Numbered from the stretch's first letter, positions 25,301 to 57,908 are shown. The stretch is 64,000 nt of DNA from a virus (IMGVR_UViG_3300009103_000025:1500-65499), one strand, 5' to 3'. Numbers and translations: made by a program. The notes: generated by a model not told the origin, from the letters alone.

Positions 25301-28300
25301 TAAGTTTGTATTCCAGCCTTATGTATTTGATAGTGATGTATTCCAAGCACCAATTAGTAAGAAGGATGTCGTATATGATACAGTTAACATTAGTGAGGCA
25401 GTAAACAAAGTAGAAGGATTTGTAAAGGCTGTTAGTGATACTGTAGGTATTACAGAAGGAGTTAATGTATTAAAACAAAGAACAATAACAAAGACTGTTA
25501 CAGAGAATGTAAACGTAAGCGAGATAAACAACAGAGCAGTTCCACTAGTTAGAACTATCAATGAAAATGTATCTGTAATAGACCTTACCAAACATAAGAA
25601 AGAGCAAACAATATTCACAATTCCAAGAGTATTCCAAACTAATGTGTTTGATAATGATGTATTCCAGCAATTATGGGATCCATCTAGTACCTCTGTTAGT
25701 AAAGTATTCCAGTCTAACATATTTGATACCGACTTATTCCAGCAAGGATATAACACAAACATTAAGCCAGCTGTATTCCAGTCTAACGTATTCAATAATA
25801 AAGTATTCACTACAAAGGTATTCAACATACTAAAGAAATCAACTGTAGTATTCCAATCATTTGTGTTCCAGTCTAATACATTCCAGTCTGCAATAGGTAG
25901 AGCAAAATCAGTTTACGAATCAATAGGAATTACAGATGCATCTGCAATAGTGAAAGGATTTGTTAAGACTGCTACAGATAGTGTAGGTGTGTCAGAAACA
26001 ACACAAAGTATTGTTAGAAAGACACTAACAAAGACTGTTACAGACACTGTTTCATTAAGTGAGACACTAGCAAGGGCAACACCAAAGAAGATTACATTAA
26101 CAGAGAATGTATCTGTACTTGATACATATTCATCTTACTTCAAGAAACAGACAATATTCACTATCCCAAGAGTATTCCAGACTAACATATTTGATAATGA
26201 TGTGTTCCAGCAGTTATGGGATCCATCTAGTACAAGTGTTACAAAGGTATTCCAGAGTAATATATTTGACAGTGATGTATTCCAGACATCAACATTTGAT
26301 ACCACTGTTACACCAGCAGTATTCCAAAGTAATGTATTCAATAACAAGGTATTCACTACAAAGATATTTGATAGTAAGACTATATCAACTGTAGTATTCC
26401 AGCCTTATGTATTCCAGAGTACTGCATTCCAATCTGCAATAGGTAGGTCAAAGACAATATATGACATAGAAGGAATAGTTGAATCAACATCAATAGTTAA
26501 GGGAGATGTTGTACCTACTGCTGATACTGTAGGAGTAACTGAACAAGTCAACAGTATTGTAAGAAAGACAGTTAAAGCAACTGTTACAGAAACTGTCAGT
26601 GTAACTGAAGCAAACAATAGGGCTGTACCAAAATTCATAACTGTAACTGACAATGTTGCAATTAAAGATGATAAGACATCATACTTAGACAAACAGGTAA
26701 TATTTACTATCCCAGCAGTATTCCAGACCAATGTATTCGATGGTGATGTATTCCAGAAGCTATGGGATCCATCTAGTACAACTGTTAAGAAAGTGTTCCA
26801 GTCTAATGTGTTTGACCAAGATGTATTCCAGAAACAATACATTACAACAACAGTTCCAAAAGTATTCCAAACCAATGTATTCCAACAGAATATATTCCAG
26901 AAAGCAACAGACACCACAAAGAAACAAACATCTGTATTCCAACAGGGAGTATTCCAGCCAGATGTATTCCAAGCACCTACAGCACTTAACAAGGCAGTTT
27001 ATGATACTATTGGTATTACAGATAGTGAGAATCATAGATTTGGATTTGTTAAGACTGCAAGTGATAGTATCGGTATTTCAGAATCAACATTCTCTGGTAA
27101 GGGTAAGACAGTATCAGTCGTTGATAATGTATCATTAATAGAAACAACACAGAAAGTTATACAGAAGGTACAGGTAATAATAGATACTGTAAAGTCTATA
27201 GATACTACAGTACCATTCAGATGGAGAACTGTTACATTCATTTACAGTCCATTCCAATCCAATGTATTCCAATCCAATGTATTCCAAGACAGATATGAAA
27301 TATTCCCAAGTGGTAGACGTAGAGAAAAGATTGAGAAGGTATTCAGTAGTATATACCAAAGCGATGTATTCCAAGGAGACATATACGACACCAATCTGGT
27401 CTATAGAGTATTCCAGCCTACAATATTCCAGCAACCTTCATTCAGTTATCCAAAGGCAATATTCCAGAGAACATATTACAAGTCTGACATTGAAGAGAAA
27501 GAGACAAAGATATACCAAGAGAATATATTCCAGCATAACGTATTTGCAACAAGAACACCTCTACACATAGAGGAACTAAACCACTATGTAATAGAAGAAG
27601 TAGGAATAACGGAGTCAATATCTGTTAAGAAGGAGTCATTTGTATCTGTAGTAGAGAATGTATCTATTGGAGAAGCCACACAACCAGTAAGAACATTCAA
27701 CAAGACAATTACAGAACCAGCAGTATCTATCACTGAAAGTGTAGATAAAGCAAGAGAGATGAGTAGAATTGTTGATGAGAATGTATCTATAACAGAAACA
27801 ACTGGTAGACTACTGAACAAGTTCAAGGCTGTTGCAGAATCAGTTACAGTATCTATATTCCAAGGAGTACAAGAAAGAGCAAGAACAATCTCAAGAACTG
27901 TAACAGATAATGTAAGTGTCAGTGAGACAAAACAATACGCTATAGGATTAATCAGGTGGATATCAGACTCTGTAGGTATCACTGAAGCATTCAACAGATT
28001 CAGAGGTATTGCAAGACCAATAGCAGAAACAATCAATGTATCTGAAGGAACTGATAGAGTAAGAACATTGATTAGACATGTAGCAGAAAGTGTACCAATC
28101 AATGAGGCTGTAATAAAAGCAAGAACATTAATCAGAGTATTCACTGAGTCATTATCTGTAAGCATATGGCAACTCAATAAGAGATCAAGAGTACTTGCAA
28201 GAACAATAGGTGAGAGTATATCCATTGCAGAATCTAAATACAAGAAGATTGAAATAATCAGAGTAATAACAGACACTGTAGGTATCACTGAACTTATTAC

Positions 28301-31300
28301 AAGATTCACTGAGAAATTCAGAAAGATATCTGAGAGTATAGCAGTTAATGAATCATTAGTAAGAGTTAGAACATTAATTAGAAAACTATCAGATAATGTC
28401 AGTGTATCTGAATCAGTTGTAAGAACAAGAGAGATACTAAGAATATTAACAGAGTCTCTAGGAATTACAGATGTAGTTACAACATTCAGAGATAGGTTCC
28501 AAGCAATATCTGATATAGTTGAGATAGTTGACTTCAGAGGTAGAGTAAGAGAGTTAATCAGAGTCATAGTCAATGAGACCGTGGGTATTACTGAATCATT
28601 AGTAAGACTAAGAGTATTAAACAGAGTGGTTAATGAAGTAACTAACATCAGTGAAACAATTACAAGATTCACTCAGAAGTTCAGAACAATCACTGAGAAT
28701 GTTTCAATAACTGAGGCAGTAGATAAGGTTAGAACAATAATAAGAACACTCACAGATAATGTAGGTATCACAGAAACAATAACTAGAGTAAGAGAATTAG
28801 TTAGGGCTATAAGTGATTCTGTAACAGTCAATATATTCCAAGGTAGATTCAGAGTACTTGCAAGAACAATAGCAGACTCTGTTGAAGTGTCTGAATCATT
28901 AGTAAGAGTAAGAGGATTAATAAGAATACTATCTGAGAATACAATCATATCTGAATCAATCACAAGATTCACTGAGAAGTTCAGAAGTGTTACAGAGAAT
29001 GTAGCAGTTAATGAATCAATAATAAGAGTAAGAGAATTGTTGAGAATGATATCTGATAATGTCAACATATCAGAGTCTGTAGTAAGAGTGAGAGAATTAA
29101 TCAGAATGATTAGTGACTCTGTAGGATTAACAGATGTAATAACAACATTAAGAGAGAGATTCCAAGCAGTGTCTGACACCGTAACTATAGAAGACTTCAG
29201 AGGTAGAGCAAGAGAGTTAATTAGAATCATAGTAACTGAAACGGTGGGAGTTACTGAGTCATTAGTAAGAACAAGAACACTGAATAGAATCATTAGTGAG
29301 ATTACCAATATATCTGATACAATCCCACACTTTAAGACAATAAGTAAGGCAGTTGCAGATACTGTTGAGATAATCGAGACAGCAGTTAAGCAATATGTAA
29401 TCATGAGAATGATTAATGAATCTGTTACAATATCTGAGAGTGTATTAAGAACCAGAGTACTTAATAGAATCATCAATGAGATAGTTAATGTAACTCAGTT
29501 CCAAGGAAAGGTAGCTGAACTGGTCAAGATAATTAGTGAGTCTGTAGGAATAACAGAATCAATAGTAAGACTAAGAGACCTAATAAGAATCATTAATGAG
29601 ACAGTTAATGTCAATGAGGTTACAAAGATTCTACACTTCTTACAAAGAACAATAACTGAACCAGCAGTAGTAATATCTGAGAATGTAATAAGAAGTAGAG
29701 TACTTAACAGAATCATCAATGAGATTGTCAACGTATCTCAATTCCAAGGCAAGGTAGCTGACATTGTTAAGATAATAACTGAAACAATAGGTGTATCTGA
29801 CAGCATAGTAAGACTGATTGGTAGAGTAAGAATCATTGCAGAATCTGTAGACATAACAGAAACAAAGGTCAGAATAAGAGAAATTGTTAGAATGTTAACA
29901 GATACTGTCAACGTTAATGAGATTACAGACAGAGTAAGAGACTTAATCAGAATGATATCTGACACTGTAACAATAGATGACTTCAGAGGAAGAGCCAGAG
30001 AACTAATTAGAATAGTAGTAACTGAAACTGTCAACGTATTAGAGAACGCAACAAAAGCAAGAAGTATCATAAGAACAATAGCAGATGCAACATTGGGTAT
30101 TACAGAATCAATAGTAAGGTTCAGAGAGATCTCACGCATACTATCAGATACTATCAATACTAACGAGACTTTAGATACTATTAGAAACAGATTTGGTATA
30201 ATAACAGAATCTGTAATCATCTGGGAGAGTATAGAGAGAGCAAGAACATTAATCAGAAACATTGCTGATACTGTAACAATAGATGACTTTAGAGGTAGGG
30301 CTAGAGAACTAATTAGAATAATAGTCAGTGAGACTGTATCAATAGGAGAGTCAATAGTAAGACAATCTACAATAACCAGAGCATTTACTGAGGCTGTAAC
30401 AATAACAGAATCAGTATTAAGAACCAGAGAATTGACCAGAATATTATCTGACACAATCAATGTATCTGATATAGTAGGTAGAATACGAGAACTATCAAGA
30501 ATAATCAGCGATACTGTATCAATAGATGACTTCAGAGGAAGAGTAAGAGAATTAATCAGAATAATAGTCAATGAATCGGTGGGTATTACTGAAACTACAA
30601 AGTTCGCAATAGGAAAGTTCAGATCAATAGCAGATACTGTAATCATTACAGAAGGATTTGCAAAGGTTCAAGGTATAGCAAGAACCGTTGCATTAGATGC
30701 AGTTAACATCACTGAGTCTGTATTGAGAACCAGAGAGTTGAGCAGAATCATCAATGAGATAGTTAACATATCTCAATTCCAAGGTAAATTAGCAGATATA
30801 ATAAGAGTAATAGATGAGACTGTTAACATCTCAGAAACTGTTGTAAGAGTAAGAGACTTACTAAGACATGTTACAGACAGTGTGACAGTAACACAGTTCA
30901 GACAAAGACTAAGAGACTTAGTAAGAGTAGACACTGCTATTGTACATATCATAGAAGGAATACCAAAACAACTAGGATTGTCCAAGGTAATAAACGAGGA
31001 TGTTAACATCACTGAGTTTAGAAATGTATTCAACAATTTGATATTAATTATCAATGAGACAATACATGTAACAGAATCATTCATACTATTGGTAAGATTC
31101 GGATTTGGATTGGTCACTGGTTCAATAGGTTCATCTGTAGTACAAAACACATTGAGAACACACAATAAGACAGCAGATGTTGTAACAGCATTGAGAGATA
31201 AATCTATCAAGATATATATGAACAGTAAATCATTGAAAGAAGAGGCTAAGAGTAAGGCTGAAAGAGTGGCTGATAAAGCAAAGTCAGTCGCAACTGAGGC

Positions 31301-41707: not shown

Positions 41708-41757
41708 ATTATTTTCCAGTTAGTAACCCTTATATATTTAACCGTTATATGACTTCT

Positions 41758-44627: not shown

Positions 44628-44960
44628 ATGCAATTCAAAAGATCAACTGTAACAATTTCTGTAGGTGCCAATGCTCAGAAGATTTTTGAACAGTTAGATA
44701 AAATAAGACCATCACATATGAGTATGTCATTATTCATTGCAAGTATTGCTGATGAATATGTAAAAACTCATGGTAATAATTCTAACCTTCTGGATTTTGC
44801 AGAAATGAACGTAGAAGCAAGTTTACCACTATTTTACGCACCTATACAAAAGTGGGAGGAAAAAGTAAGAACCATGTCATCTGAGGACTTTATCAAATTA
44901 CAACAGAGACATGACCAATTAGGAAATATGATTAGGACATACGAGGCACGAAAATTATGA
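44628..44960 (+). CDS. RHH/CopG-like regulator
   Basis: TVTISV strand plus SMSLFIASIADEYV helix; ATGA overlap with mcm. Confidence 0.6.
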   Translation: MQFKRSTVTISVGANAQKIFEQLDKIRPSHMSMSLFIASIADEYVKTHGNNSNLLDFAEMNVEASLPLFYAPIQKWEEKVRTMSSEDFIKLQQRHDQLGNMIRTYEARKL

Positions 44961-46912
44961 GTGAAACTCAATATACTGAATCAGCACAGGTTGATAGAAT
45001 AAAAGAACTTCTAATGACCAATGAGTGGATTGACCAAATTGATAGGTTAAGACCTACTGATAGCCTAACCATAGATGTATCTGACCCTAAATGGGTAGAT
45101 ATTTTCCTTTATGATGAGGGAGGTTTTACCGATTTTGCAAGAAGAGCAATTCAAGAAATTCTTCAGCAAAAACACGTAGGTATAGACATCTCAAAAACAT
45201 TTGGTAGATTAAAAATCAGATTAGCATCTGAGAAATTAATTCCTATGGAGGAAATTAACTCTAAGAAAGAGGGTGAAAGTGTATCTTTCACATGTAATAT
45301 AATTGGAACCGATGCACCAAAAACATTTGTCAAAGAGGCTGATGTTATGTGTGACCAGTGTTTCACTGTAGAGCATGTTAAGGCTGGATTTGATAGGATT
45401 TTACCTACATTAATGTGTATGAATCCATCATGTAAAGGCAATAGAATGGATGTTCAAAAAACTGGCTTAGTAACAGAAGATATCCAAACACTCATTCTTC
45501 AACAACCATTAGAAAATGCAACTAAGAACTCACCAATAACATTCTATGGTAAAGTGACAGCAGACCAAGTAGGAACTTCATTTGTAGGTCAACGTAAGAA
45601 TATAATTGGCATATTCAGAAGTATTATTGACCCAAAGAAAGATGAAAATGAGGTATTAATTGATGTGTTATCAATAACTGATGTTGATGATGTAGAGGAA
45701 ATAGTTCCTACTCAAGCAGAAGAGGAACAAATTAAGAAGGATGTCAAAGATGAAGACTTTGTTGAGAAACTAAAAAACAGTTTTGCACCTCATATTTACG
45801 GATATGATGACATTAAACTGTCATGTATACTCCAATTACTGGGGGGTGTACCATCAAAGAAACGTGCAGATATTAACATCCTATTAGTGGGTGACCCATC
45901 AATGGCAAAATCTGAGCTATTGAAATATGGTAATCTGGTAACCCAGAAATCAATATACACATCTGGTAAAGGAACTACCAGTGCTGGTCTAACAATCGGT
46001 ATGGTAAAATTACATGATGGTAGAATGATAGCACAGGCTGGTGTTTTACCACTTTGTAATAACGGTCATGCATTTATTGATGAGTTTGACAAAATGAATA
46101 AAGATGATAGAAGTTCAATGCATGAGGCAATGGAACAGCAAACAGTATCAATAGCAAAAGCTGGTGTCACAATGACATTAGATGCAAAGGCATCAATTCT
46201 GGCAGCTGCAAACCCAAAGTTTGGTACTTATGATAGTAATCTATCATTAATGGATAACATAAACATACCAAGTCCATTACTATCTAGATTTGATTTAATC
46301 TGGCTAATAAAAGACAAAGTAAGTTTAGTCGAAGACAATGCAAAAGCAAATCACATATTAGATGGATTTGCATCAAACGAACCAGATAAATCATGTAGAT
46401 TTACTGAGAGACAATTAACAGCATTTGTTAATATGGCAAAAAAATGTACACCAGAACTCACAAGAGAAGTTCGTGATGAAATTGTCAGAATATATGAGAA
46501 ACTAAGGCAAGCATCAAACGAGCAATTCACTGTAGGAATAAGACAGTTAGAGGCTTTGGTTAGACTTTCTATGGCTCATGCAAAAATGAGATTGAAAGAT
46601 AAGGTAGAAATAGAAGATATAACAGCAGTCCGTGATTTGTTAGTATCAATGTATGCACACTTTGACATAGATATATCACAAGGAGGTTCACAAGCTAAAT
46701 TGTTTACCACTGGTACTATGACAAAAGAACAGAAATATCATACATTATGGTCTGAGTGCGCAGATAAAAACGGAAAGGTTAAATTGCAAGACTTTATGAA
46801 AAAGTTAGAGGAGAATGGATTATCAAACCTTGAAGCAGTTAAACTATTTCATAGATGGGAGAACACAAACACAATAAAGTTGATGGCAGATGGCACGTAC
46901 AAAAAAACCTGA
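44957..46912 (+). CDS. mcm: MCM replicative helicase
   Basis: Zn finger, GDPSMAKS, IDEFDKM, LLSRFD, sensor 2 IRQLEAL; no intein evident. Confidence 0.97.
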   Translation: MSETQYTESAQVDRIKELLMTNEWIDQIDRLRPTDSLTIDVSDPKWVDIFLYDEGGFTDFARRAIQEILQQKHVGIDISKTFGRLKIRLASEKLIPMEEINSKKEGESVSFTCNIIGTDAPKTFVKEADVMCDQCFTVEHVKAGFDRILPTLMCMNPSCKGNRMDVQKTGLVTEDIQTLILQQPLENATKNSPITFYGKVTADQVGTSFVGQRKNIIGIFRSIIDPKKDENEVLIDVLSITDVDDVEEIVPTQAEEEQIKKDVKDEDFVEKLKNSFAPHIYGYDDIKLSCILQLLGGVPSKKRADINILLVGDPSMAKSELLKYGNLVTQKSIYTSGKGTTSAGLTIGMVKLHDGRMIAQAGVLPLCNNGHAFIDEFDKMNKDDRSSMHEAMEQQTVSIAKAGVTMTLDAKASILAAANPKFGTYDSNLSLMDNINIPSPLLSRFDLIWLIKDKVSLVEDNAKANHILDGFASNEPDKSCRFTERQLTAFVNMAKKCTPELTREVRDEIVRIYEKLRQASNEQFTVGIRQLEALVRLSMAHAKMRLKDKVEIEDITAVRDLLVSMYAHFDIDISQGGSQAKLFTTGTMTKEQKYHTLWSECADKNGKVKLQDFMKKLEENGLSNLEAVKLFHRWENTNTIKLMADGTYKKT

Positions 46913-47957
46913 TAGCAACCCTTATAAGGTAGATGATGATAAGGAGAATATGTCTGGGGTCGAGGAAATAGCAAAAGCTGACGCTCAAGAAGAGCAAGTA
47001 CTTGACCTAGGCATCTCTCAACTAGATGGTGTCGGAGCTGTCACAGCTAAGAAACTAACTGACTTTGGCGTATCATCTCTAATTGATATCTGTATTAGGG
47101 GAGGTAGAGAAATATCTGAAATTACAGGTGTTGCAAAATCCAAAGCAGATGGTTGGGTTTTTAATGCTCAGAAAATATTAGAAGAGAACAATCTAATAAG
47201 AAAATCTGACATGGATGTAATAGATTTAATGGAATATCAGGCAAATTACCCTACCTTAGAAACCAAATGTACTGCAATAGATGAGTTATTTGGAGGAGGA
47301 GTAAAGCCAGAATGTACATATGAAGTATATGGAGAATTCGGTTCTGGTAAAACACAATTCTGTAATACACTCACATCTCAAGCAATAAATGATGGTGAGA
47401 ATGTAGTATGGATTGATTGTGAAGATACTTTCAGACCTACAAGAATATTAGAAATAATGAAAGCAAGAGAATATGTTGAAACAAGAGAGGATATGGAAAA
47501 GGCATTAGGTCGTATACAATATTATTATACTCCAAATACTGAGCAACTTCTAGGAACTATTAATGCATTATCAAAAATAATGGAGGAAAAAAGACCAAGA
47601 TTGGTAATCATAGATGGTGCTATAGGACAATTTAGGGAGGAATATCTAGGTAGAGGAACTCTAGCAGATAGGCAAAACCAAATTGCAAGACTAATGACTC
47701 ATATCAAAAACATATCATATTATTTTAGAACAACTGTTATCTACACAAATCAAGTACAAACAGACCCATCAGTTATGTTTGGAGACCCAGTAAAACCTAT
47801 TGGGGGTAATGTTGTAGGTCATGCAGCTACTTATCGTATTTATTTTAAGAAATCAGGCAAAAAAAGAATAGCAAGAATGGTTGATTCACCAGAACATCCA
47901 CAAGCAGATGCAGAATTTGCCCTCACAGAGAAGGGTATTGAAGACAAAGAAGATTAA
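46890..47957 (+). CDS. radA: Archaeal RadA recombinase
   Basis: N-terminal HhH, GEFGSGKTQ, IDCEDTFRP, GRGTLADRQ, RIARMVDSP. Confidence 0.97.
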   Translation: MARTKKPDSNPYKVDDDKENMSGVEEIAKADAQEEQVLDLGISQLDGVGAVTAKKLTDFGVSSLIDICIRGGREISEITGVAKSKADGWVFNAQKILEENNLIRKSDMDVIDLMEYQANYPTLETKCTAIDELFGGGVKPECTYEVYGEFGSGKTQFCNTLTSQAINDGENVVWIDCEDTFRPTRILEIMKAREYVETREDMEKALGRIQYYYTPNTEQLLGTINALSKIMEEKRPRLVIIDGAIGQFREEYLGRGTLADRQNQIARLMTHIKNISYYFRTTVIYTNQVQTDPSVMFGDPVKPIGGNVVGHAATYRIYFKKSGKKRIARMVDSPEHPQADAEFALTEKGIEDKED

Positions 47958-49800: not shown

Positions 49801-50056
49801 AGTGTTTATTTTTATACCACTCTTCAACTTCTTCACTATCTGCTGATATTTTTCGTGCTATCTGCATTGTGTTTTGAAGTTTAAATTTCTTTGGCTTGTT
49901 TCTAACAAGACCATTACAACATCCACATCTCAACCTAGCCATAGAAGAATTTTCTCTATGTAGGTAGTTTTTATGGATGAATGTAGCGCATTCTTGGCAA
50001 TAATAGCTGTCACCATAGTATTTTTTAGTGAACCTAGAGCATAAACCATTACACAT
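49781..50056 (-). CDS. Zinc-binding protein
   Basis: CNGLC, YCQEC, RCGCC. Confidence 0.7.
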   Translation of the reverse strand: MCNGLCSRFTKKYYGDSYYCQECATFIHKNYLHRENSSMARLRCGCCNGLVRNKPKKFKLQNTMQIARKISADSEEVEEWYKNKHSKDSLE

Positions 50057-50241
50057 TAGGTAAAACCCCTAGGATATCCATCATCTCTTTTGTAATAATT
50101 TGGGTCTTTCTTTATATTTTCCTCATATTCTTTAATGCCTTTTGAAACATTTATGTAACAATCAGCACATAAAGTTATCTTATCTATTTTTTCTACGTTA
50201 CCCTCCTTCATACAGATGAGGCACATGGATTTATCCTCCAC
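50056..50241 (-). CDS. Small zinc-finger protein (start uncertain)
   Basis: CLIC...LCADC. Confidence 0.6.
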   Translation of the reverse strand: MEDKSMCLICMKEGNVEKIDKITLCADCYINVSKGIKEYEENIKKDPNYYKRDDGYPRGFT

Positions 50242-50506
50242 CAACTCGAAAAAACCTCCCAAGACTGTTGTTTGTTCTCTCCTCAGCCATGTCATACACA
50301 CTGGTAGACAGTAAAACCTCTTCTTCTAGGTCATTGTATAGACTATCTATATCTTCATCAGTTAGTTTTCTACAACGATTTGCCCTAATCATACCAAGAA
50401 GTCTCTTAACATCTACTCCTCCACCACCTTTCTTTTTATTGGCAACATCCATTGTCATCAATGTGGTTGCATGGTAGATGAATTTCTCCCTCTCTGTAAA
50501 TGTCAT
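50231..50506 (-). CDS. Hypothetical protein
   Basis: 91 aa; ATGA coupling. Confidence 0.7.
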   Translation of the reverse strand: MTFTEREKFIYHATTLMTMDVANKKKGGGGVDVKRLLGMIRANRCRKLTDEDIDSLYNDLEEEVLLSTSVYDMAEERTNNSLGRFFRVGGG

Positions 50507-50844
50507 ACTGGATTTGCAAGAAGGTGTTCTAATGATGCTAAATCCCTTTTTAGCTCAACATCTTCTTTTGCCTCCCAATATTCATAGGGATATTTACAGT
50601 TAGAGCAAGCACAGTTGTCTTTCTCTTCTTGTGTAAATTCTCGATAACCCATTTCTTCTGGGTAATTTGGATCTTCAGGGGTACCTTTCGGTATATGTTT
50701 GGGCATAAATAAATCCCTTTCAAGTTCCATTATACGTTTTATTGTTTTTGACCGTGAAAATACCAATATATCTCTACTTCTATCAGTATCTTGAACGGTT
50801 TTACATATAATGTCTTTGTATTTTTGTTTAATAGTTTCGTTCAT
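50503..50844 (-). CDS. Hypothetical protein
   Basis: ATG 40 nt from the promoter at 50864-50885. Confidence 0.7.
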   Translation of the reverse strand: MNETIKQKYKDIICKTVQDTDRSRDILVFSRSKTIKRIMELERDLFMPKHIPKGTPEDPNYPEEMGYREFTQEEKDNCACSNCKYPYEYWEAKEDVELKRDLASLEHLLANPV

Positions 50845-50930
50845 CCAATGACTAGGTAGCTTAGGGTATTTAAGCGTTACTAACCACAGTATAAACAGTA
50901 TGCATATTATGCATACTATCCATACTATGG

Positions 50931-52712
50931 TTAACGTAGAACTGATTTAACTAAGTTTTTGAATCTGTTTACAACAACATCTGATGCATCATACATAGAA
51001 CGCACATTCATTATTCTCTTTTTACCAAAGCATTCTTCTAAGAACCATTCTCCATACTGATGCATTCCTACTGAAACAATCATAATATTTGGTGTGGTTC
51101 TTCTTGCTCTCAATAAAGCCTTTTGATTCATTGCCAAAAGTTGTTTTTTCTTTAAAGAATAATAGTTGTTTTGATATTGTGGTAGTCCGTCTGTAATCAA
51201 AATCATTAATTTCTTCTGTCCTTTCATCCTTTTTAGTTGTCTAGATGAGTAATCTAGGGCTAAATGGGTAGGTGTCATCATGCATTGACCATCATTTCCA
51301 GTTACTATTTGGTTACAATCCTCTAAGTTATTGATGTCAGTTATACCAACATCACCTCTTTGGTTAGATGACCAAACATTTGCCTTTAATTCTATGTTAG
51401 GATAGTCTTTAACACTTGCAAATAATGATGCGACGAGTTGTCTTGCAACCTCTATTCTGCCATTTTCCATGGAACCAGAGGCATCTACACTGATTACAAC
51501 CGATGCTCCTTGATGTCTTTTTACATCCTTAAAGCATTTTGTAATATCATATCCTCTAATTTGGTTCTCAATATAGGCATCAATATCTATTTCATCACCA
51601 TCATAACCCACAGTAGGTCTAGACCTTTCAGTGATTGTTCTAAATATCTTTCTTAGACCAATTACTGTATCATTATCTAACTCTATACTATCAGACTTAT
51701 CACGATTCACTCTTAAGACGTACGATGGTACAGGTGTTTCAGTACTAGTTGATTCTTCACCCATTGAGTCTTGAATTTCTTGAATCTCTTCTTCACCACG
51801 TTCAGCCTGTTGAGACTCAAGCTCACTAAGTGCGTCTTCATCACCTTCTGCTTCTGCTATTTCATCAATTAAATCATCGTCTGTTTGTGAATCTAATGGG
51901 TCATCAGATAACTGTTGATGGTCTTTACCATCACCTTCAGTACTATCATGCTCCCATTCTTTATCCTCATCCGAATCATGTAAAGGCATATTCTCTTCTA
52001 TTGATTTCTCATATTGTGCTGTTTGCATCTTTGGAGGTAGTTGTTTCTTACGTTGTTTATCTAACTCCTTAAAATATTCATCCACAATGTGTTTTAATTT
52101 AGACATTTGGACTAATGCACCCAGTCTACCACTACCTACAATGTCATTTAATGCTTGACCTAACTCCTTTGAGTGTTTGAATTTTCTACCAGAAACTAAG
52201 TCATCCCTAAAGAATCTATGCATAAGTAGAATATCAACTGGATTGTTTTTTATTTTATTTTTATTAAATTTTTTACCTAGATTTGTTCTTGCTTTTACAA
52301 AACGTTTTTCATTTGCTAGCCAAAGTCTAGCCATCATAGATTCTATTCTTTGGTCTTCAAGAACATTCATCATATTCCACATCATATCATATCTCTCTTG
52401 ATTATGCCAATCTTCTTTATGCATCCATTTTTGCAATAAGTCTTTCATTTCTGGCATAGGTGTTTGCATCATAATATGACCTATTTCATGATTAAATGCA
52501 GTAAATTTCTCCAGACCTTTAACGGCAGGGGTTGCTACATTTAATATAAATTCTGTATTATTTGGTTTTTTATTATTTAAATTCTTATCGATAACTTTGT
52601 TATCATCATCCCAGTATGTAAGGTCAATCTTACAATCTCTCACATGTTCAGCAATATCTGCTGTCTTACGAAAGAATTCTTTGTCCGATAATAAGTCACG
52701 ATTTCTAGCCAT
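50931..52712 (-). CDS. VWA-domain protein (CobT/NorD-like partner of a MoxR AAA)
   Basis: HEIGH, NVLEDQRIE, acidic linker, MIDAS DASGSM, ITDGLP. Confidence 0.9.
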   Translation of the reverse strand: MARNRDLLSDKEFFRKTADIAEHVRDCKIDLTYWDDDNKVIDKNLNNKKPNNTEFILNVATPAVKGLEKFTAFNHEIGHIMMQTPMPEMKDLLQKWMHKEDWHNQERYDMMWNMMNVLEDQRIESMMARLWLANEKRFVKARTNLGKKFNKNKIKNNPVDILLMHRFFRDDLVSGRKFKHSKELGQALNDIVGSGRLGALVQMSKLKHIVDEYFKELDKQRKKQLPPKMQTAQYEKSIEENMPLHDSDEDKEWEHDSTEGDGKDHQQLSDDPLDSQTDDDLIDEIAEAEGDEDALSELESQQAERGEEEIQEIQDSMGEESTSTETPVPSYVLRVNRDKSDSIELDNDTVIGLRKIFRTITERSRPTVGYDGDEIDIDAYIENQIRGYDITKCFKDVKRHQGASVVISVDASGSMENGRIEVARQLVASLFASVKDYPNIELKANVWSSNQRGDVGITDINNLEDCNQIVTGNDGQCMMTPTHLALDYSSRQLKRMKGQKKLMILITDGLPQYQNNYYSLKKKQLLAMNQKALLRARRTTPNIMIVSVGMHQYGEWFLEECFGKKRIMNVRSMYDASDVVVNRFKNLVKSVLR

Positions 52713-53022
52713 TGTTTATCTCCTCAAACTTTTGTCTGTTTAGATAGTCCGTGGCTATTACTCTTTTACCAAACTCATTACAAGTACCAAACGACTTCAT
52801 TGGTTGTTCAGACTTTGTAACTGTATTCTTATTTCTCTTTCTTTTTGATTGGTAAAAACCAGCCTTACTCATAGTCATAAGAATAAAGTTTGGCTTGTAG
52901 TCTTCTGGATGTTCAGTAACAGCACAAACAGGGCATAGCTGATATTTCTTCCAGCATTGACCTTTGGCTCCTCCTCTACATCTAGTTCTAGAGCACATTT
53001 TACAGCGTACCATTAGATACAC
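52705..53022 (-). CDS. Cys-rich hypothetical protein
   Basis: CKMC, CPVC; lies between the AAA and VWA genes. Confidence 0.6.
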   Translation of the reverse strand: MYLMVRCKMCSRTRCRGGAKGQCWKKYQLCPVCAVTEHPEDYKPNFILMTMSKAGFYQSKRKRNKNTVTKSEQPMKSFGTCNEFGKRVIATDYLNRQKFEEINNG

Positions 53023-53047
53023 TCCTTGTTTTTAAAAAAATATTGGG

Positions 53048-53992
53048 TCATTTGAGATTCACCCCAAATGTTTCATTAGCTCTTGCTTTGATTAATTCCC
53101 TTTCGTTAGGGTCAGTGTACTTGATGAGAATTGTCTCTTTAATTGTTGTTTCAAGAATTTCAGCTGGTGATGCGTCTGGCATATCTTCCAATAAATCTCG
53201 ATATACTTCAGTGAATTGTATTAAATCTCTAGGAGATAACACATATTCTATATTGCCTTTTGTTCTTAAACTGTATGTATCTTGTCCAAGTGTTAGAAGT
53301 GGATTTTTAACATATTGTTCTGGAATATCTTTCCAATCTACAACTCTTGTTACCTCTTCAACAGAAGGATAGTCCCATACAGAACCAATTAAACGACTTC
53401 TCAAGTCTTCAGTTAGGTTATTTACTCCAGCATATTCAACTGGGTTTGTTGTAAGAATGATTGCTAATTTGCAATTTTCTTTTAGTCTGTAAGTTTTACC
53501 TCCAGCACTACAACTAGCCCTTTTGTCAAATGGTCTGTTAACCCATTTCTGAATGTCTTCTTCAAGAGCACCGACTTCATCAATGTATAGACATGCATGT
53601 CCAAAATGATTTGCTACTTCAAAAGCAGTAGGCAATAGTCCTCTCTCAAAATAAGAGCCATTTTTGTCAACTTGTAATCTACCTTGTAAATCACTTCTAT
53701 TGGTACCTACTCCACAGTTAAACTCTACTAATGCTATACCTTTATCTCTACATATGGCATGAACTAAAGAAGTTTTACCAAGTCCTTTAGCACCATAAAT
53801 GAGATATGGTTTATCTGCACGTTCAATGACACGTTCTACTCGTTTACGTTCACCATGTAAGTCAACGTATTCTCCCATATCATCTATGTTTTCTGGTGAG
53901 TATTCATCAAAGTTGATGCTGTTAATTCTACCAACAGCTTCATCTTTTTCCTCAGAAATGTTTTCAAGATATTTCATATCGTCTTGTGACAT
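53048..53992 (-). CDS. MoxR-family AAA+ ATPase (CobS/CbbQ-like)
   Basis: GAKGLGKT, LYIDE, TTNP..YAG, LRSR, SPRDL. Confidence 0.9.
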   Translation of the reverse strand: MSQDDMKYLENISEEKDEAVGRINSINFDEYSPENIDDMGEYVDLHGERKRVERVIERADKPYLIYGAKGLGKTSLVHAICRDKGIALVEFNCGVGTNRSDLQGRLQVDKNGSYFERGLLPTAFEVANHFGHACLYIDEVGALEEDIQKWVNRPFDKRASCSAGGKTYRLKENCKLAIILTTNPVEYAGVNNLTEDLRSRLIGSVWDYPSVEEVTRVVDWKDIPEQYVKNPLLTLGQDTYSLRTKGNIEYVLSPRDLIQFTEVYRDLLEDMPDASPAEILETTIKETILIKYTDPNERELIKARANETFGVNLK

Positions 53993-54095
53993 AGTATATA
54001 TTGTATTTACATCTTATTAAGCCTTACTATCCCAACTATGCATACTATTGATAGTTAATTGGGGTATTTAAACGTTGAAAGTGGTTGTAAAAAAA

Positions 54096-54485
54096 TTATA
54101 CTCTCTCTCTTAACTCTAACAATTTCTTAAGAACACGTTTCATTCTTTGTTCCTCATTCCTTAACTTTTGTTTTCTAATTTTGAAGTTCTCCACATTTGC
54201 TTGAGCAACTCTAATCTTATGCATAGCCCTATTACACTCAACATTACAAAACTTTGGTTTGTTAGAAGGAAGTGGTTTATTACAGTATAAACAATTATCT
54301 AGAGACACTGTTAATCCCATCTCTATCATAATCTTTCTTCTAGCATCTCTAACCTTTTTTTGTCTGTCAGCATATCCTTTTTTAATACACTCATCACATT
54401 TTATTCTAGCTGGTGAGTAATCTGTTGTTAGTGGATATATTTCACAGCCACATCCTTCACATGGCTTTTTAATCTCTTCACTCAT
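54096..54485 (-). CDS. Zinc-finger protein
   Basis: CEGC, CDEC, CLYC, FCNVEC. Confidence 0.7.
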   Translation of the reverse strand: MSEEIKKPCEGCGCEIYPLTTDYSPARIKCDECIKKGYADRQKKVRDARRKIMIEMGLTVSLDNCLYCNKPLPSNKPKFCNVECNRAMHKIRVAQANVENFKIRKQKLRNEEQRMKRVLKKLLELRERV

Positions 54486-54664
54486 TTTTTCACCCTATAG
54501 TATGCTTTTCTACACTCATCGTCACAATAAACCCTACTGTTATTGTATCTAGTTGAGACATATTTATTCCACTTACCACATTCACGGCAATTAAATGTCT
54601 TTATCCTAACATTTGGTTTACCAAACATTTGCTCCATCTCCCAATCAGATAAACCTTCAGCCAT
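54482..54664 (-). CDS. Small zinc-finger protein
   Basis: CRECG...YCDDEC; start MAEGL. Confidence 0.65.
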   Translation of the reverse strand: MAEGLSDWEMEQMFGKPNVRIKTFNCRECGKWNKYVSTRYNNSRVYCDDECRKAYYRVKK

Positions 54665-54866
54665 CTTGTTTCTCCTTAAGTTCCATAAAATCACTTGCTA
54701 TTGTTCTCTTAAACAAATCCATATCCTCTTTAGGTATCTCATCATTAGATAAGAAAAAATAAATTAAATTCATTGCACGTTTTAGCTGAGCTTGACAATC
54801 AAGCAATGCATAATATTGCTCTGTATCTCCCATTGGGTCACAATAATCACAACCCAAATTCTTCAA
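54657..54866 (-). CDS. Hypothetical protein
   Basis: Overlap-coupled ORF. Confidence 0.55.
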   Translation of the reverse strand: MKNLGCDYCDPMGDTEQYYALLDCQAQLKRAMNLIYFFLSNDEIPKEDMDLFKRTIASDFMELKEKQDG

Positions 54867-55128
54867 CTCCTATTTCTTTTCTAACCCACTCACAGTTATC
54901 ACACATACATCTAATAGATGGTATGACTTTATTAGCCCAGTACATTTCAGGGTCAGACCAGAAGTCTATCACCCCAGCTTGAGCTACTCTATCATGTGAG
55001 TGAACATTTTCAACTAATATTCTAAGTATAGCACTCATTTGTAATCCTTCAGTATCATCAAAGTAATCAAGGTTACTGTATTTTTTTATCAACTTGTGTT
55101 GACAATCCATTATAGGTGAACAAGTCAT
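54847..55128 (-). CDS. Hypothetical protein (CMCDNC)
   Basis: Coupled ORF. Confidence 0.6.
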   Translation of the reverse strand: MTCSPIMDCQHKLIKKYSNLDYFDDTEGLQMSAILRILVENVHSHDRVAQAGVIDFWSDPEMYWANKVIPSIRCMCDNCEWVRKEIGVEEFGL

Positions 55129-55529
55129 TATGGTATCTCTCCATCAGGGTCAGGTTTTTCATATTTTTTAATAATATCAAATATTCTATCAGATATTGCT
55201 AAAACTCTTTTATCATGATTTGCTATACCCATAGCACCTAATTCTAATTGTAGTTCTTGTAATTCATTTTTAATATCAATCATATCTTTCTCATAATGAG
55301 TATAATATTTACCATCCACTTTAACATAATGGTCTCCACAATCCATTGCTTCAGCTTCATTCTCATCCTTTGGATAATGAGGTTGTATCTTAGGCTCTGG
55401 GTCACTACCATCATGAACCTGTTCTATCTCCTCATATTTCTGAGCTACCTCTTCAGAAGCTTGGTCTTCAATTCCACTTAGAACATATTCCTCATAGAAT
55501 CCAACATCAGGCTCTTCTTCGTAACTCAT
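55128..55529 (-). CDS. Acidic hypothetical protein
   Basis: 133 aa; ATGA coupling. Confidence 0.7.
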   Translation of the reverse strand: MSYEEEPDVGFYEEYVLSGIEDQASEEVAQKYEEIEQVHDGSDPEPKIQPHYPKDENEAEAMDCGDHYVKVDGKYYTHYEKDMIDIKNELQELQLELGAMGIANHDKRVLAISDRIFDIIKKYEKPDPDGEIP

Positions 55530-55969
55530 CTATAATCTTCCTCCGTTACTGAAGCAGTGTATTTATTAATATTTTTTATTTTACTCATAAATTCATATAC
55601 TTCTTGCGCATTTGTTACACCTAATAAATTAAATAATATCAACAAAGTCGATAATGCATAATCATCTTTTTCTTCAACGTGTTGTTTATACTTAGATTGT
55701 CTTAAACATCTTATTGCATTGTCTACTGATTTATTCCACATTTTATTAAATTCCTTTTCACCAGCCTTAAATATCTTTAATTGTTCATCATCTAATTGTG
55801 ACTCTGGTGTCAATCCATTCTCACAATTCATACATTTCCAATGTCTACCATTTTTAATAAAACCTTGGTCAGACGCTAAAATCTCATCACTTGGTACTCT
55901 ATAACCACAATCTTTACAGTAATTACCCACTTCAGAAGGGTCATATACTATTCTATAGAATCTAGTCAA
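55526..55969 (-). CDS. Zinc-ribbon-containing protein
   Basis: CKDCG...CMNC. Confidence 0.65.
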   Translation of the reverse strand: MTRFYRIVYDPSEVGNYCKDCGYRVPSDEILASDQGFIKNGRHWKCMNCENGLTPESQLDDEQLKIFKAGEKEFNKMWNKSVDNAIRCLRQSKYKQHVEEKDDYALSTLLILFNLLGVTNAQEVYEFMSKIKNINKYTASVTEEDYR

Positions 55970-56162
55970 AGTTATTTGCCTCCTTTACATGTGTAACATG
56001 CCAGCATTCAGAGCGATATTTGAATCCTTTACAGTTACATTCAATCTCGCCATTACCTTTCAATACTACTTTATAGTATACATCAGGGTCAGACTTTGAT
56101 TGAACTTCCCATTGATTCGTAATTGAATCATTAAAGTCTGCAATAGAAGTAAAGAAATCCAT
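55962..56162 (-). CDS. SWIM zinc-finger protein
   Basis: V.SKSDPDVYY.V...CNCKGFKYRSECWH. Confidence 0.85.
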   Translation of the reverse strand: MDFFTSIADFNDSITNQWEVQSKSDPDVYYKVVLKGNGEIECNCKGFKYRSECWHVTHVKEANNFD

Positions 56163-56377
56163 TAGTAACCAAGCTCCGTTAATTTAAGATGAACTTCTTC
56201 TTTTACATCCTCTGGGATATAATCAAAGTATTCCTCCATTATTTTTAATGCTTCTTTACATTTATCCATACCAACATAAGCCTCAACCTCTTCAGTCCAG
56301 TTTTCACAAACTAACTCAATCATTTGGTCAGGGTCATTAGCAACAACATCGAATGCATCATTATAATCTATTTCCAT
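56162..56377 (-). CDS. Acidic hypothetical protein
   Basis: 71 aa; TAATG coupling. Confidence 0.65.
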   Translation of the reverse strand: MEIDYNDAFDVVANDPDQMIELVCENWTEEVEAYVGMDKCKEALKIMEEYFDYIPEDVKEEVHLKLTELGY

Positions 56378-56380
56378 ATC

Positions 56381-56623
56381 TTAATAATCATCTCCTTTTA
56401 TAAAAGCCTTACTATCAGCGTCTGGAATCCATTTTTTAATATCTTTTGGATAATACATGTAACCAGAACCATCACAATACCAACACTCAACATCTTGAGT
56501 ATCACCATCAGCCATTTCTACATCACGGATAAATCCATGCAAACAATATTTGCATTTTTCTTTAATTACGTTATTTTTTTCCATAACTTCAGTCTCATGT
56601 TTATCTTCGTGGTCTAAAGGCAT
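56381..56623 (-). CDS. DnaJ-type zinc-finger mini-protein
   Basis: CKYCLHG...CWYCDGSG; start MPLDH. Confidence 0.65.
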   Translation of the reverse strand: MPLDHEDKHETEVMEKNNVIKEKCKYCLHGFIRDVEMADGDTQDVECWYCDGSGYMYYPKDIKKWIPDADSKAFIKGDDY

Positions 56624-56745
56624 TATGTATCTGCACACTCCGTAAGTTTAGAATAACATTTTTCACATAAATTCCATATTACACCATCATGTGTATACCA
56701 TTGTTTCTCTGTTTTATGTCCACAACTGGTTTTTGGAAGTTTCAT
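56623..56745 (-). CDS. 40-aa Cys/His mini-protein
   Basis: Hand translation MKLPKTSCGH...LCEKCY; TAATG coupling at both ends. Confidence 0.55.
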   Translation of the reverse strand: MKLPKTSCGHKTEKQWYTHDGVIWNLCEKCYSKLTECADT

Positions 56746-57212
56746 TAGAAATCACCCCTTCTAACTTGATAACAATTTAATCCTATTTTACGCCACATTT
56801 CAACAACCTTTTGTCTGTCATCAAATGCAGTAACTGGATTAAAACCATCGTTTGTAATTTGCCAGTATAATTCTTCTTTAACAATCTCATCAGGTCTAAA
56901 GTCATCATCTTTTCTTAAATATAATTTATTATATCCCACTCCAGCTTGAGCTAATTGTTGTATTGTAACTTTTCTATGTCTCTCATTTCTAGCACTGGTA
57001 ATAATTACTTTTTCTCCAGCATCATATAATACTTCAGCTATCTTACAAACATCATAATTTGGTCTGTCCCACTCAAGCATACATTCAGGGTCTAGGAATA
57101 AATCCCAGTTCATAACTTTATCTTCATCTCTTTTTGCAAGTTTAGCACGTGCAACACGTAACTCTACATTCATTAAGGTACCATCTACATCAAAAATATA
57201 ATCTTCAGTCAT
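56745..57212 (-). CDS. HAD phosphatase, like the T4 PNK 3'-phosphatase domain
   Basis: FDVDGTL, TSAR, DFRPDEIVKEE, FDDR..VV.MWR..G. Confidence 0.9.
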   Translation of the reverse strand: MTEDYIFDVDGTLMNVELRVARAKLAKRDEDKVMNWDLFLDPECMLEWDRPNYDVCKIAEVLYDAGEKVIITSARNERHRKVTIQQLAQAGVGYNKLYLRKDDDFRPDEIVKEELYWQITNDGFNPVTAFDDRQKVVEMWRKIGLNCYQVRRGDF

Positions 57213-57296
57213 TATTATCATCTCCTTTAAACTGAGCGTAACAATCCCTACACATTGGAGGGTATGAAGTCCAGTCTATACTATTATGCATACATT

Positions 57297-57569
57297 TCAT
57301 TTTAAATCCTCCCTTTGGTCTTCAAATTGTTTGTAGGCATTTTGTTTCATAACTTCACTAATAACTGAAAACATCATTAATTTTAATGTATCTACTATGT
57401 TACCAGACTTTTCATCTCTCCATACAGAAGTAATAAAGTCTGCAAGTTGATTATACATTCTTTCATTTGAGCTTTCAATGTTTGGGTCAGTTAATATTCC
57501 TAAAATCTCAGACGAGAACTCTTTAGTCATAATTATTTTCTCATACATTTTATCATCTTTATCTGCCAT
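57297..57569 (-). CDS. Hypothetical protein
   Basis: ATG 39 nt from its promoter. Confidence 0.7.
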   Translation of the reverse strand: MADKDDKMYEKIIMTKEFSSEILGILTDPNIESSNERMYNQLADFITSVWRDEKSGNIVDTLKLMMFSVISEVMKQNAYKQFEDQREDLK

Positions 57570-57626
57570 AGTAATTATACCATAAACTCATATAAAAGAC
57601 TTACTAACCAGTAACGAATTAATTTT

Positions 57627-57680
57627 AAAAAGAAAAGAGTATTTGGCTCTAAGAGCCTCCTCAAATATCATCTTTTCTAC
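57627..57680 (-). ncRNA. Candidate ~55-nt hairpin sRNA 3
   Basis: Full promoter unit (57703-57741) with no start codon at the expected position; the transcript folds into one hairpin ending in a U-tract. Confidence 0.55.
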
Positions 57681-57765
57681 AATAGTATTTTATTTTTATT
57701 TTATTTAAGCGTTACTAACCACAACAGGGGTATAAAAGCGTTGAATACATGGTTAAAAAAAAGGA

Positions 57766-57900
57766 TTAAGGAGGCAATCCTAAATCTTTGGCTACTTTAT
57801 TAGCCATTTTTAAGGCACGTTCATTTGCACGTTTGTTTACTCCTTCTTTACAGGTACACTTAGTGTGTTTTATGCCACAGAAGTTACAATAATGTCTCAT
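57766..57900 (-). CDS. 44-aa Cys mini-protein
   Basis: MRHYCNFCGIKHTKCTC... Confidence 0.55.
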   Translation of the reverse strand: MRHYCNFCGIKHTKCTCKEGVNKRANERALKMANKVAKDLGLPP

Positions 57901-57908
57901 TGTATCAG

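Follow-up and report, generated by a model that had tools for sequence, protein, structure and literature searches.

Near the end of an array of small gene cassettes that share repeated promoter and terminator elements, one viral genome carries a unit whose promoter is complete and behind which no gene opens. What does such a promoter make, and does its product have a role? The stretch analyzed here, hereafter the window, is 64,000 nucleotides long and derives from a 65,499-bp contig of IMG/VR; positions refer to the window unless another locus is named. A preliminary description of the unit took it for a cassette carrying nothing but a short hairpin RNA with a U-tract at its end, and proposed an early viral sRNA, for example an antitoxin mimic, a decoy for a defense protein, or an SD-like sponge. 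Four things are read directly: which sequence elements are present, how regularly they are spaced in the genome, that the gene content is archaeal, and that our searches gave no homologues. We regard the sequence observation as real and the RNA reading as plausible; a function for the RNA is unsupported, as are the early timing and each of the three roles proposed.

A real and functional RNA would be a rare instance of a marine archaeal virus using RNA to manipulate its host, and the molecule is short and easily synthesized. We know of no described regulatory RNA from viruses of ammonia-oxidizing archaea, and a non-exhaustive literature search, from which no claim of absence is made, gave no paper on small RNAs of thaumarchaeal viruses among the top matches listed. 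Even as an orphan cassette, the unit would mark the exact start set by a promoter and the exact stop set by a terminator, in an array whose cargo is seen to be lost or gained. The hairpin matters less than its setting, a virus of archaea that has a conserved box A and whose promoters and terminators follow a very regular grammar.

Archaeal gene content and possible host

The window encodes an MCM helicase of 651 amino acids (Pfam PF00493, E = 2e-75, with the MCM_lid and MCM_OB domains also matched), and a gene for a Rad51/RadA-type recombinase adjoins the MCM gene. When the MCM protein was searched with tblastn against the phage collection, all 19 matching records were archaeal viruses. Among the matches listed for TerL, the best is to Halogranum tailed virus 1 (2e-42), the runners-up being at about 1e-26. 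A search at the DNA level found no close isolated phage. Together, MCM, RadA, and the affinity of TerL to a haloarchaeal virus point to an archaeal tailed virus, and that the virus is archaeal we consider highly probable. The preliminary description had implicitly placed the unit in a bacteriophage; that frame was wrong, because archaeal replication genes are present.

Relatives of two proteins, RadA (72% identity) and a MoxR-like ATPase (53% identity), are encoded on the same 44-kb contig, which is binned with a Candidatus Nitrosopelagicus MAG. Binning is a weak indicator of the host, and with that reservation a marine ammonia-oxidizing archaeon seems the better guess for the host; this is possibly an archaeal tailed virus of marine Thaumarchaeota. 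In three small contigs from a Nitrosopelagicus-labeled MAG, 3 among 20 ORFs have TTAAAT-type boxes 22–24 nt 5′ of the ATG, an anecdotal count that is too small for use.

A regular promoter and terminator grammar

Between 57.6 and 63.4 kb, a module recurs that runs from a stop codon through a C-rich stretch, six to eight T, ~13 nt, box A, 4–6 nt (in most copies), TGGTTAGTAA, gnCTTAAATA, and ~22 nt to an ATG. With at most one mismatch allowed, TGGTTAGTAA occurs 19 times against 7.3 expected, and none of 100 shuffles reached 19; the repetition of the module is clearly beyond chance. Of the 21 GTTAG[GT]AA sites in the window, 19 have a TATA-like octamer at +13 to +20 (module positions are counted from the T of TGG). 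An ATG follows at +42 to +44 in 16 of these 19 modules, which are found on both strands, and opens ORFs of 34–257 amino acids. Written out, the grammar that holds genome-wide is GTTAGTAA, 2 nt, CTTAwATA, 21–23 nt, ATG, the distance from octamer to ATG keeping within that range in 16 of the 19 modules. Plus-strand genes with the module include those at 31900, 32631, 41758, 42210, and 44628, and for the ORF listed at 41749 the true start is probably 41758.

The BRE is a purine-rich element directly upstream of the TATA box. In this genome the position, adjoining the TATA box on its upstream side, is occupied by (T)AGTAAG, an element that differs among related viruses. The cited passages of the GeneMarkS-2 study place the archaeal promoter box ~22–26 nt from leaderless starts and have 11 of 11 Thaumarchaeota in the leaderless-rich group (PMC6028130). 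Read by archaeal rules, the module fits a promoter of the BRE/TATA type that yields leaderless mRNAs. GGGAGG stands directly 5′ of a downstream gene start at ~57300. A sigma-70 reading was rejected: There are 58 promoter-like sites against 64.4 expected, and the distance from −10-like hexamers to the ATG is not constant.

Each cassette closes with a C-rich stretch and then a run of six to eight T. Leaving aside the gene-less unit, 9 of 13 T-runs are without an unusual upstream fold, and in 4 of 13 a hairpin ends 4–9 nt before the run. According to the portion of the termination study cited here, archaeal terminator U-tracts usually contain 4–7 U and need no hairpin, and aCPSF1 binds efficiently only where there are at least two U4 tracts (PMC8716108). 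The T-runs, with the C-rich stretches before them, accord with archaeal terminators of this hairpin-independent type.

Box A (consensus aCGCTTwwwwACCCCT) has a TATA-like core and is present in 13 copies on the minus strand between 57726 and 63444. In 11 of the 13 it lies 12–16 nt after a T-run, and it is followed either by the promoter module or by further copies of itself.

Three of the 19 modules are exceptions to the grammar. One is the gene-less unit. Another, P62511, leads into a further box A and a long A-tract. The third, P43090 (43090–43141, plus strand), has its ATG at +50, in a GAAAA context similar to that in the gene-less unit, and opens a 282-aa ORF, apparently a genuine gene, with a weak phosphoesterase match; the spacing implies a predicted leader of ~7–8 nt without a Shine-Dalgarno sequence for this gene. 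The lack of a gene behind the promoter of the gene-less unit is a real exception among the 19 modules.

The gene-less unit

The preliminary description reported a complete box A and promoter at this site, and every element is indeed in place on the minus strand (Table 1). The promoter is undecayed, with box A, TGGTTAGTAA, TATA octamer, and A-rich spacer all matching the consensus of the early subfamily; pairwise, the spacer scores 16–17 with the four modules that it resembles, against a median of 9. A transcript of the unit is likely, since no conserved position of the promoter deviates. The usual place of the ATG was said to be empty, and it reads T-G-T-A-G (TTG, then TAG). The first ATG comes at +51 and does open the short ORF that the description had named as a possible competitor of the RNA.

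Table 1. Features of the gene-less unit and its surroundings, with the genes that indicate an archaeal virus (window coordinates)
Feature	Position	Strand	Basis
MCM, Rad51/RadA, and terminase genes	44957-47957, 35597-36979	+	Profile and sequence matches
T8 tract, terminator of the preceding cassette, ending the 48-aa gene (57766-57912)	57755-57762	-	T-run list
Box A, ACGCTTTTATACCCCT, 13 nt after the T8 run	57726-57741	-	Motif search
TGGTTAGTAA in BRE position, 4 bases after box A; followed by CGCTTAAATA (57702-57711)	57712-57721	-	Motif search
TATA-like octamer CTTAAATA, +13 to +20	57702-57709	-	Module survey
A-rich spacer, TATA to predicted start	57681-57701	-	Resembles P60810, P60254, P59479, P58466
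Predicted transcription start, G57680 or A57678	57678-57680	-	Position of the A of the leaderless ATG in other modules
Hairpin: 8-bp closing stem, 5-bp middle stem, GAGGA bulge, apical GGCUC-UUA-GAGCC	57631-57678	-	Fold
U4-C-U5 tract TTTTCTTTTT, predicted archaeal terminator	57627-57636	-	Sequence
27-aa ORF MIFEEALRAKYSFLFKINSLLVSKSFI, ATG at +51 (57671)	57588-57671	-	ORF list
Next promoter, TGGTTAGTAA-gt-CTTTTATA (TGGTTAGTAA at 57601-57610), without box A, 16 nt past the T-tract	57591-57610	-	Motif search
90-aa ORF, ATG at +42 of the next promoter	57297-57569	-	ORF list

At its far end, the unit has a U4-C-U5 tract that is shorter and more broken than the T6–8 runs elsewhere, and the U4 lies inside the closing stem of the hairpin. 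Archaeal termination calls for at least 4–5 U, ideally in two U-tracts, and for no hairpin; the tract is of this kind, and termination is predicted there. The core of the claim that a short RNA with a U-tract end is the only cargo therefore stands: The TATA octamer predicts a start at about 57678–57680, and the U4-C-U5 tract fits a terminator. What falls away is the bacteriophage setting.

Beyond the unit, the next promoter opens a run of genes from 57569 to ~54096, the 90-aa ORF being the first, that contains neither a cassette terminator of T7 or longer nor a further promoter module.

The predicted RNA and its fold

The hairpin folds as originally described, with AGAAAAGA pairing with TCTTTTCT, TATTT with AAATA, and GGCTC with GAGCC around a TTA loop, the GAGGA being bulged out (MFE −13.9 kcal/mol). 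The 54-nt RNA string given at that time is exactly 57680–57627, and the predicted product is an RNA of 47–54 nt. The first paired base is 57678 and the last 57631, so the hairpin is the whole predicted transcript. No more than 2 nt separate the predicted start from the hairpin, and the terminator forms part of the closing stem; for an accident, this looks tidy.

Compared with dinucleotide shuffles, the fold has a z-score of −1.56, and 13 of 200 shuffles are as good. Among windows of the same length on the minus strand between 50 and 64 kb, 59 of 1965 (3.0%) fold as well, and over the whole window the figure is 1.6%. The fold is modestly unusual, and not striking. Such pairing comes easily here, since a purine-rich coding strand faces a T-rich terminator.

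The apical palindrome (57645–57657) is unique in the window and 10 other loci searched, and as a single copy it was rejected as a repeated operator. Rfam 15, run in E-value mode over 50000–64000, gave three weak matches, none of them at 57.6 kb, and membership in an Rfam family was rejected, no covariance model matching at the unit. C/D box RNAs carry the motif pair RUGAUGA/CUGA; inspection by eye found no such pair, and a K-turn was also rejected by eye. In a crude test (sequences written with T, mononucleotide shuffles, 458 early-region windows), the best duplex of the RNA with the virus's own early transcripts reached −27.9 kcal/mol, a value that 15 of 20 shuffled RNAs equaled or bettered.

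The first 22 nt of the cargo match the start of the next gene, with its ATG changed to ATT, at 19 of 22 positions, and none of 300 shuffles scored as high. The core 12–14-mer, AGAAAAGATGAT(A), recurs elsewhere in the genome, including in coding sequence, and with the real genome as the null, 4 overlapping windows of 2541 score 26–28 against 27 for the match of cargo and next gene. Since the core recurs and real windows score alike, we give the resemblance little weight: The idea that the cargo arose as a copy of the start of the next gene is suggestive but not robust against the real-genome null, and was rejected.

Related viruses

Seven relatives (L061–L067) were found through the conserved ATPase alone, at 64%–70% identity, and their early genes nearly all differ from those of the window. 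Three of them (L061, L063, and L064) have the T-run and box A, and L063 and L064 also have the TATA octamer; box A was not found in the other four loci searched. Two more distant relatives (G001:C10 and G002:C2) showed neither box A nor a cassette array. A search with the PNK protein returned only distant contigs of jumbo-phage size, and one with a 593-aa VWA-domain protein returned a further relative, L042, that ends short of the early region.

No gene-less cassette was found in L063 and L064, where an ORF of 52–156 amino acids lies behind all eight recognized promoters. In two other relatives, a canonical promoter is followed by ~200–350 nt without an ATG ORF of at least 35 amino acids on that strand (L062, 356–731; L061, ~250–498). 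Both of these stretches start AATTGCAAGTCT, and we regard them as candidate longer noncoding RNAs.

The cargo itself has no recognizable counterpart. Against 11 related loci (138,716 bases), the best blastn result was a 12-nt exact match (E = 0.29); the exact pattern of the cargo had no match in viral_contigs and five in genome_contigs, these last in unrelated organisms and attributable to chance. Across the 11 loci, viral_contigs, and genome_contigs, no homologue with compensatory changes in the stems was found, and four relatives gave no match to Rfam. A tblastx comparison of the region with eight related loci gave no homologue among the matches listed, all of which had E values of at least 0.8. 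Searches for combined elements returned only matches expected by chance: ACCCCT...TGGTTAGTAA gave 28 single matches in viral_contigs, none with box A, and CGCTTWWWWACCCC...GGTTAG gave 3 in viral_contigs and 15 in metagenome_contigs. On these sequences, this genome is so far the only one with the unit, and nothing at the site, the 27-aa ORF included, is conserved in any relative found. No homologue was found either for the three genes around it (48, 90, and 171 amino acids), the 171-aa and 90-aa proteins having none in viral_contigs, so the non-conservation of the unit says little.

Two further features of the promoters vary or recur among these viruses. The 10–12 nt directly 5′ of the TATA box are alike throughout any one virus and differ from virus to virus, being TGGTTAGTAA in the window, TACTAGwTryT in L063, and AACTATCTAyT in L064; this divergence at the BRE position could reflect virus-specific factors, or homogenization of repeats within each genome. 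In the window, box A copies cluster at 62488–62631; four of them and the box-A-like GGCTTAAATACCCC lie within ~230 nt beside a 30-nt A-tract (~62445–62475), and L063 (3046–3137) and L064 (2029–2066) have a cluster of the same layout. The cluster could be a site for a regulator, a second TATA box, or an origin-like hub.

Possible roles of the unit

The reading we favor, tentatively and at somewhat less than an even chance, is that the unit is an orphan cassette without a gene and that its RNA is a by-product with no sequence-specific job, the lack of function being what we infer. It would be a transcription unit of an archaeal tailed virus that lost its gene or never had one. Host archaeal RNA polymerase, with TBP and TFB, would assemble on the TATA octamer and the TGGTTAGTAA in BRE position, start at about 57678–57680, where 16 sister modules put the AUG of a leaderless mRNA, and presumably terminate within U4-C-U5, which would give an RNA of 47–54 nt with its first and last bases paired into a hairpin. 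The cassette would be an orphan within a fast-shuffling array of promoter and terminator cassettes, and at most the unit would serve as one extra stop ahead of the long downstream operon. Its uniqueness, its degenerate T-tract (T4-C-T5 versus T6–8), and the lack of a box A after it favor an orphan cassette, and a fold not clearly above chance counts for a by-product RNA. Against this, the undecayed promoter, the fit of the hairpin to the transcript, the low percentile of the fold, and the noncoding stretches of L061 and L062 favor a real RNA.

These latter features would be accounted for by a trans-acting viral sRNA, made in quantity from the box-A promoter, stabilized by the pairing of its ends, and acting through its exposed GAGGA bulge, UUA loop, or U-rich tail on a host RNA or on a host RNA-binding protein, for instance one that binds U-tracts. 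In favor are an intact, canonical promoter, a hairpin that spans the entire predicted transcript and whose MFE ranks among the lowest 3% for windows of the region, and a GC-rich apical palindrome without a second copy; the stretches in L061 and L062 suggest that promoter-driven noncoding transcripts may be a habit of the group. The 3′ end also has the two U-tracts that, in the cited portion of the termination study, aCPSF1 reportedly needs (PMC8716108), a requirement that may extend to this RNA. However, neither a homologue nor a structural analog was found in our searches, the z-score is modest, no Rfam family matches, and shuffled RNAs did as well as the real one in the crude duplex test. 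We consider a trans-acting RNA unlikely. The most specific form of the idea, in which a virus of marine archaea, probably thaumarchaeal, has a small-RNA gene whose ~50-nt end-paired hairpin with a two-U-tract tail, made from a box-A early promoter, would be a decoy for a host RNA-binding factor (aCPSF1, an Sm-like protein, or the ribosome via GAGGA), is distinctly unlikely. At the opposite extreme, nothing might be made, the unit being a silent promoter copy or the hairpin a fortuitous pairing of purine-rich sequence with a T-tract. The ease with which purine-rich coding strands and T-rich terminators pair, the shuffles that fold equally well, and the recurrence of AGAAAAGATGAT in coding sequence all agree with this, but the promoter matches the consensus throughout, so there is no reason to think it inactive, and we find this very improbable. 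A micro-gene is hardly to be expected either. The 27-aa ORF exists, its ATG lies 8 nt past the usual start, and P43090, with its ATG at +50, indicates that a leader of 7–8 nt is tolerated at least once; yet the ORF crosses the T-tract, so that a terminated transcript would have no stop codon, and then the next promoter. No homologue of the peptide appeared among the tblastx matches listed, and 27 amino acids are within chance for AT-rich sequence, in which many ORFs of 20–30 amino acids were listed. The ORF is probably incidental.

The surroundings of the unit raise the possibility of a device acting in cis where the cassette array meets the long operon, shielding, occluding, or timing the promoter of 57569–54096. 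Polymerases would run for 50 nt and stop 16 nt before the next BRE/TATA; alternatively, the weak T4-C-T5 tract would be read through and feed the operon. The next promoter lacks box A and the transcript of the unit would stop just short of it, a layout that allows a role of this type. The site is the only one with two promoter modules 111 nt apart, and the unit is the last box-A promoter and has the weakest T-tract in the array. The downstream module is the only cassette promoter without box A, is not preceded by a T7–8 run, and heads the longest run of genes without a T7+ terminator or further module. The case is purely architectural, however, the same arrangement was found in no relative, and a read-through leader of the 90-aa gene would be ~110 nt long and without a Shine-Dalgarno sequence. 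We think a cis-acting device rather doubtful and prefer, with the reserve already expressed, the orphan cassette.

Comparison with known systems

The cassettes resemble archaeal transcription units in having a conserved element in BRE position and a TATA-like octamer 21–23 nt before the start codon, the latter as in the cited passages of PMC6028130, and in first genes without a Shine-Dalgarno sequence and T-run ends without an adjoining hairpin, as in those of PMC8716108. They differ in that a host BRE is shorter and far less uniform than TGGTTAGTAA, which also varies between related viruses, and in the additional conserved box A that precedes it; in the gene-less unit, moreover, no gene follows.

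Another likeness is to the PeSL cassettes of T4-like phages, which the cited part of the source describes as small repeated units of terminator and promoter between orphan genes of a hyperplastic region, thought to drive gene gain and loss (PMC4122927). Here too a repeated composite of terminator and promoter flanks orphan genes, 13 of the 15 ORFs in the cassette region (63858–57766) having no Pfam family at E ≤ 0.01. The likeness is one of analogy and not of homology: PeSL cassettes are built from a stem-loop and an early sigma-70 promoter, both bacterial signals, and the sequences do not resemble one another. By this analogy, it is plausible that the empty unit is a product of PeSL-like shuffling.

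Lambdoid phages make two short transcripts that run from a promoter to a nearby terminator, oop RNA, which is antisense to cII, and 6S RNA (pR′ to tR′), the substrate of Q antitermination. In them, as predicted for the unit, the terminator lies 50–200 nt after the promoter and a small hairpin-ended RNA is made upstream of or beside a long operon. In contrast, the lambdoid RNAs depend on bacterial RNA polymerase and on hairpin-dependent terminators, and neither an antisense partner nor an antiterminator is seen here.

The hairpin leads directly into a U-tract, as in a bacterial intrinsic terminator, but the stem next to the tract is rich in A-U pairs and the G-C pairs are at the tip. The closing stem has six A-U and two G-C pairs, whereas the bacterial type has a GC-rich stem of 7–8 bp before its U-run, and the unit was not among the sites listed by a scan for bacterial terminators (at least three G-C pairs, loop of 3–8). 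A bacterial intrinsic terminator was rejected on these grounds; the virus appears to be transcribed in the archaeal way, for which no hairpin is necessary.

Other features of the genome

A direct repeat of 119 bp, 100% identical, is shared by the two ends of the source contig (contig 1–119 and window 63882–64000). At only 119 bp, the repeat is most probably an overlap left by the assembly of a circular or permuted genome rather than a true terminal repeat.

Among the tail genes lies a 3020-aa ORF (22329–31391, plus strand) with an unexplained match to DUF2489 (Pfam, E = 1.6e-7, 31.8 bits against a cut-off of 27); no PHROG family or PDB sequence matched it better than E = 0.2. A phage-encoded or virion RNA polymerase was considered for this ORF and rejected, the RNA polymerase motifs searched for being absent, as was any PHROG or PDB match at the thresholds used, and the reading was dropped because MCM indicated an archaeal host.

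The MoxR-like AAA ATPase (314 amino acids) and the 593-aa VWA-domain protein are encoded ~340 nt apart at 50931–53992 on the minus strand, with a 102-aa ORF between them. The ATPase is present in all seven relatives, L061–L067, and the VWA protein in all eight when L042 is added; the two are the best markers for the virus group. Within the cassette region, a 100-aa protein (62660–62962, minus strand) matches the cyanophage family Kyano_Gp96 (Pfam, E = 2.4e-11) and is among the few early proteins common to the window and L063.
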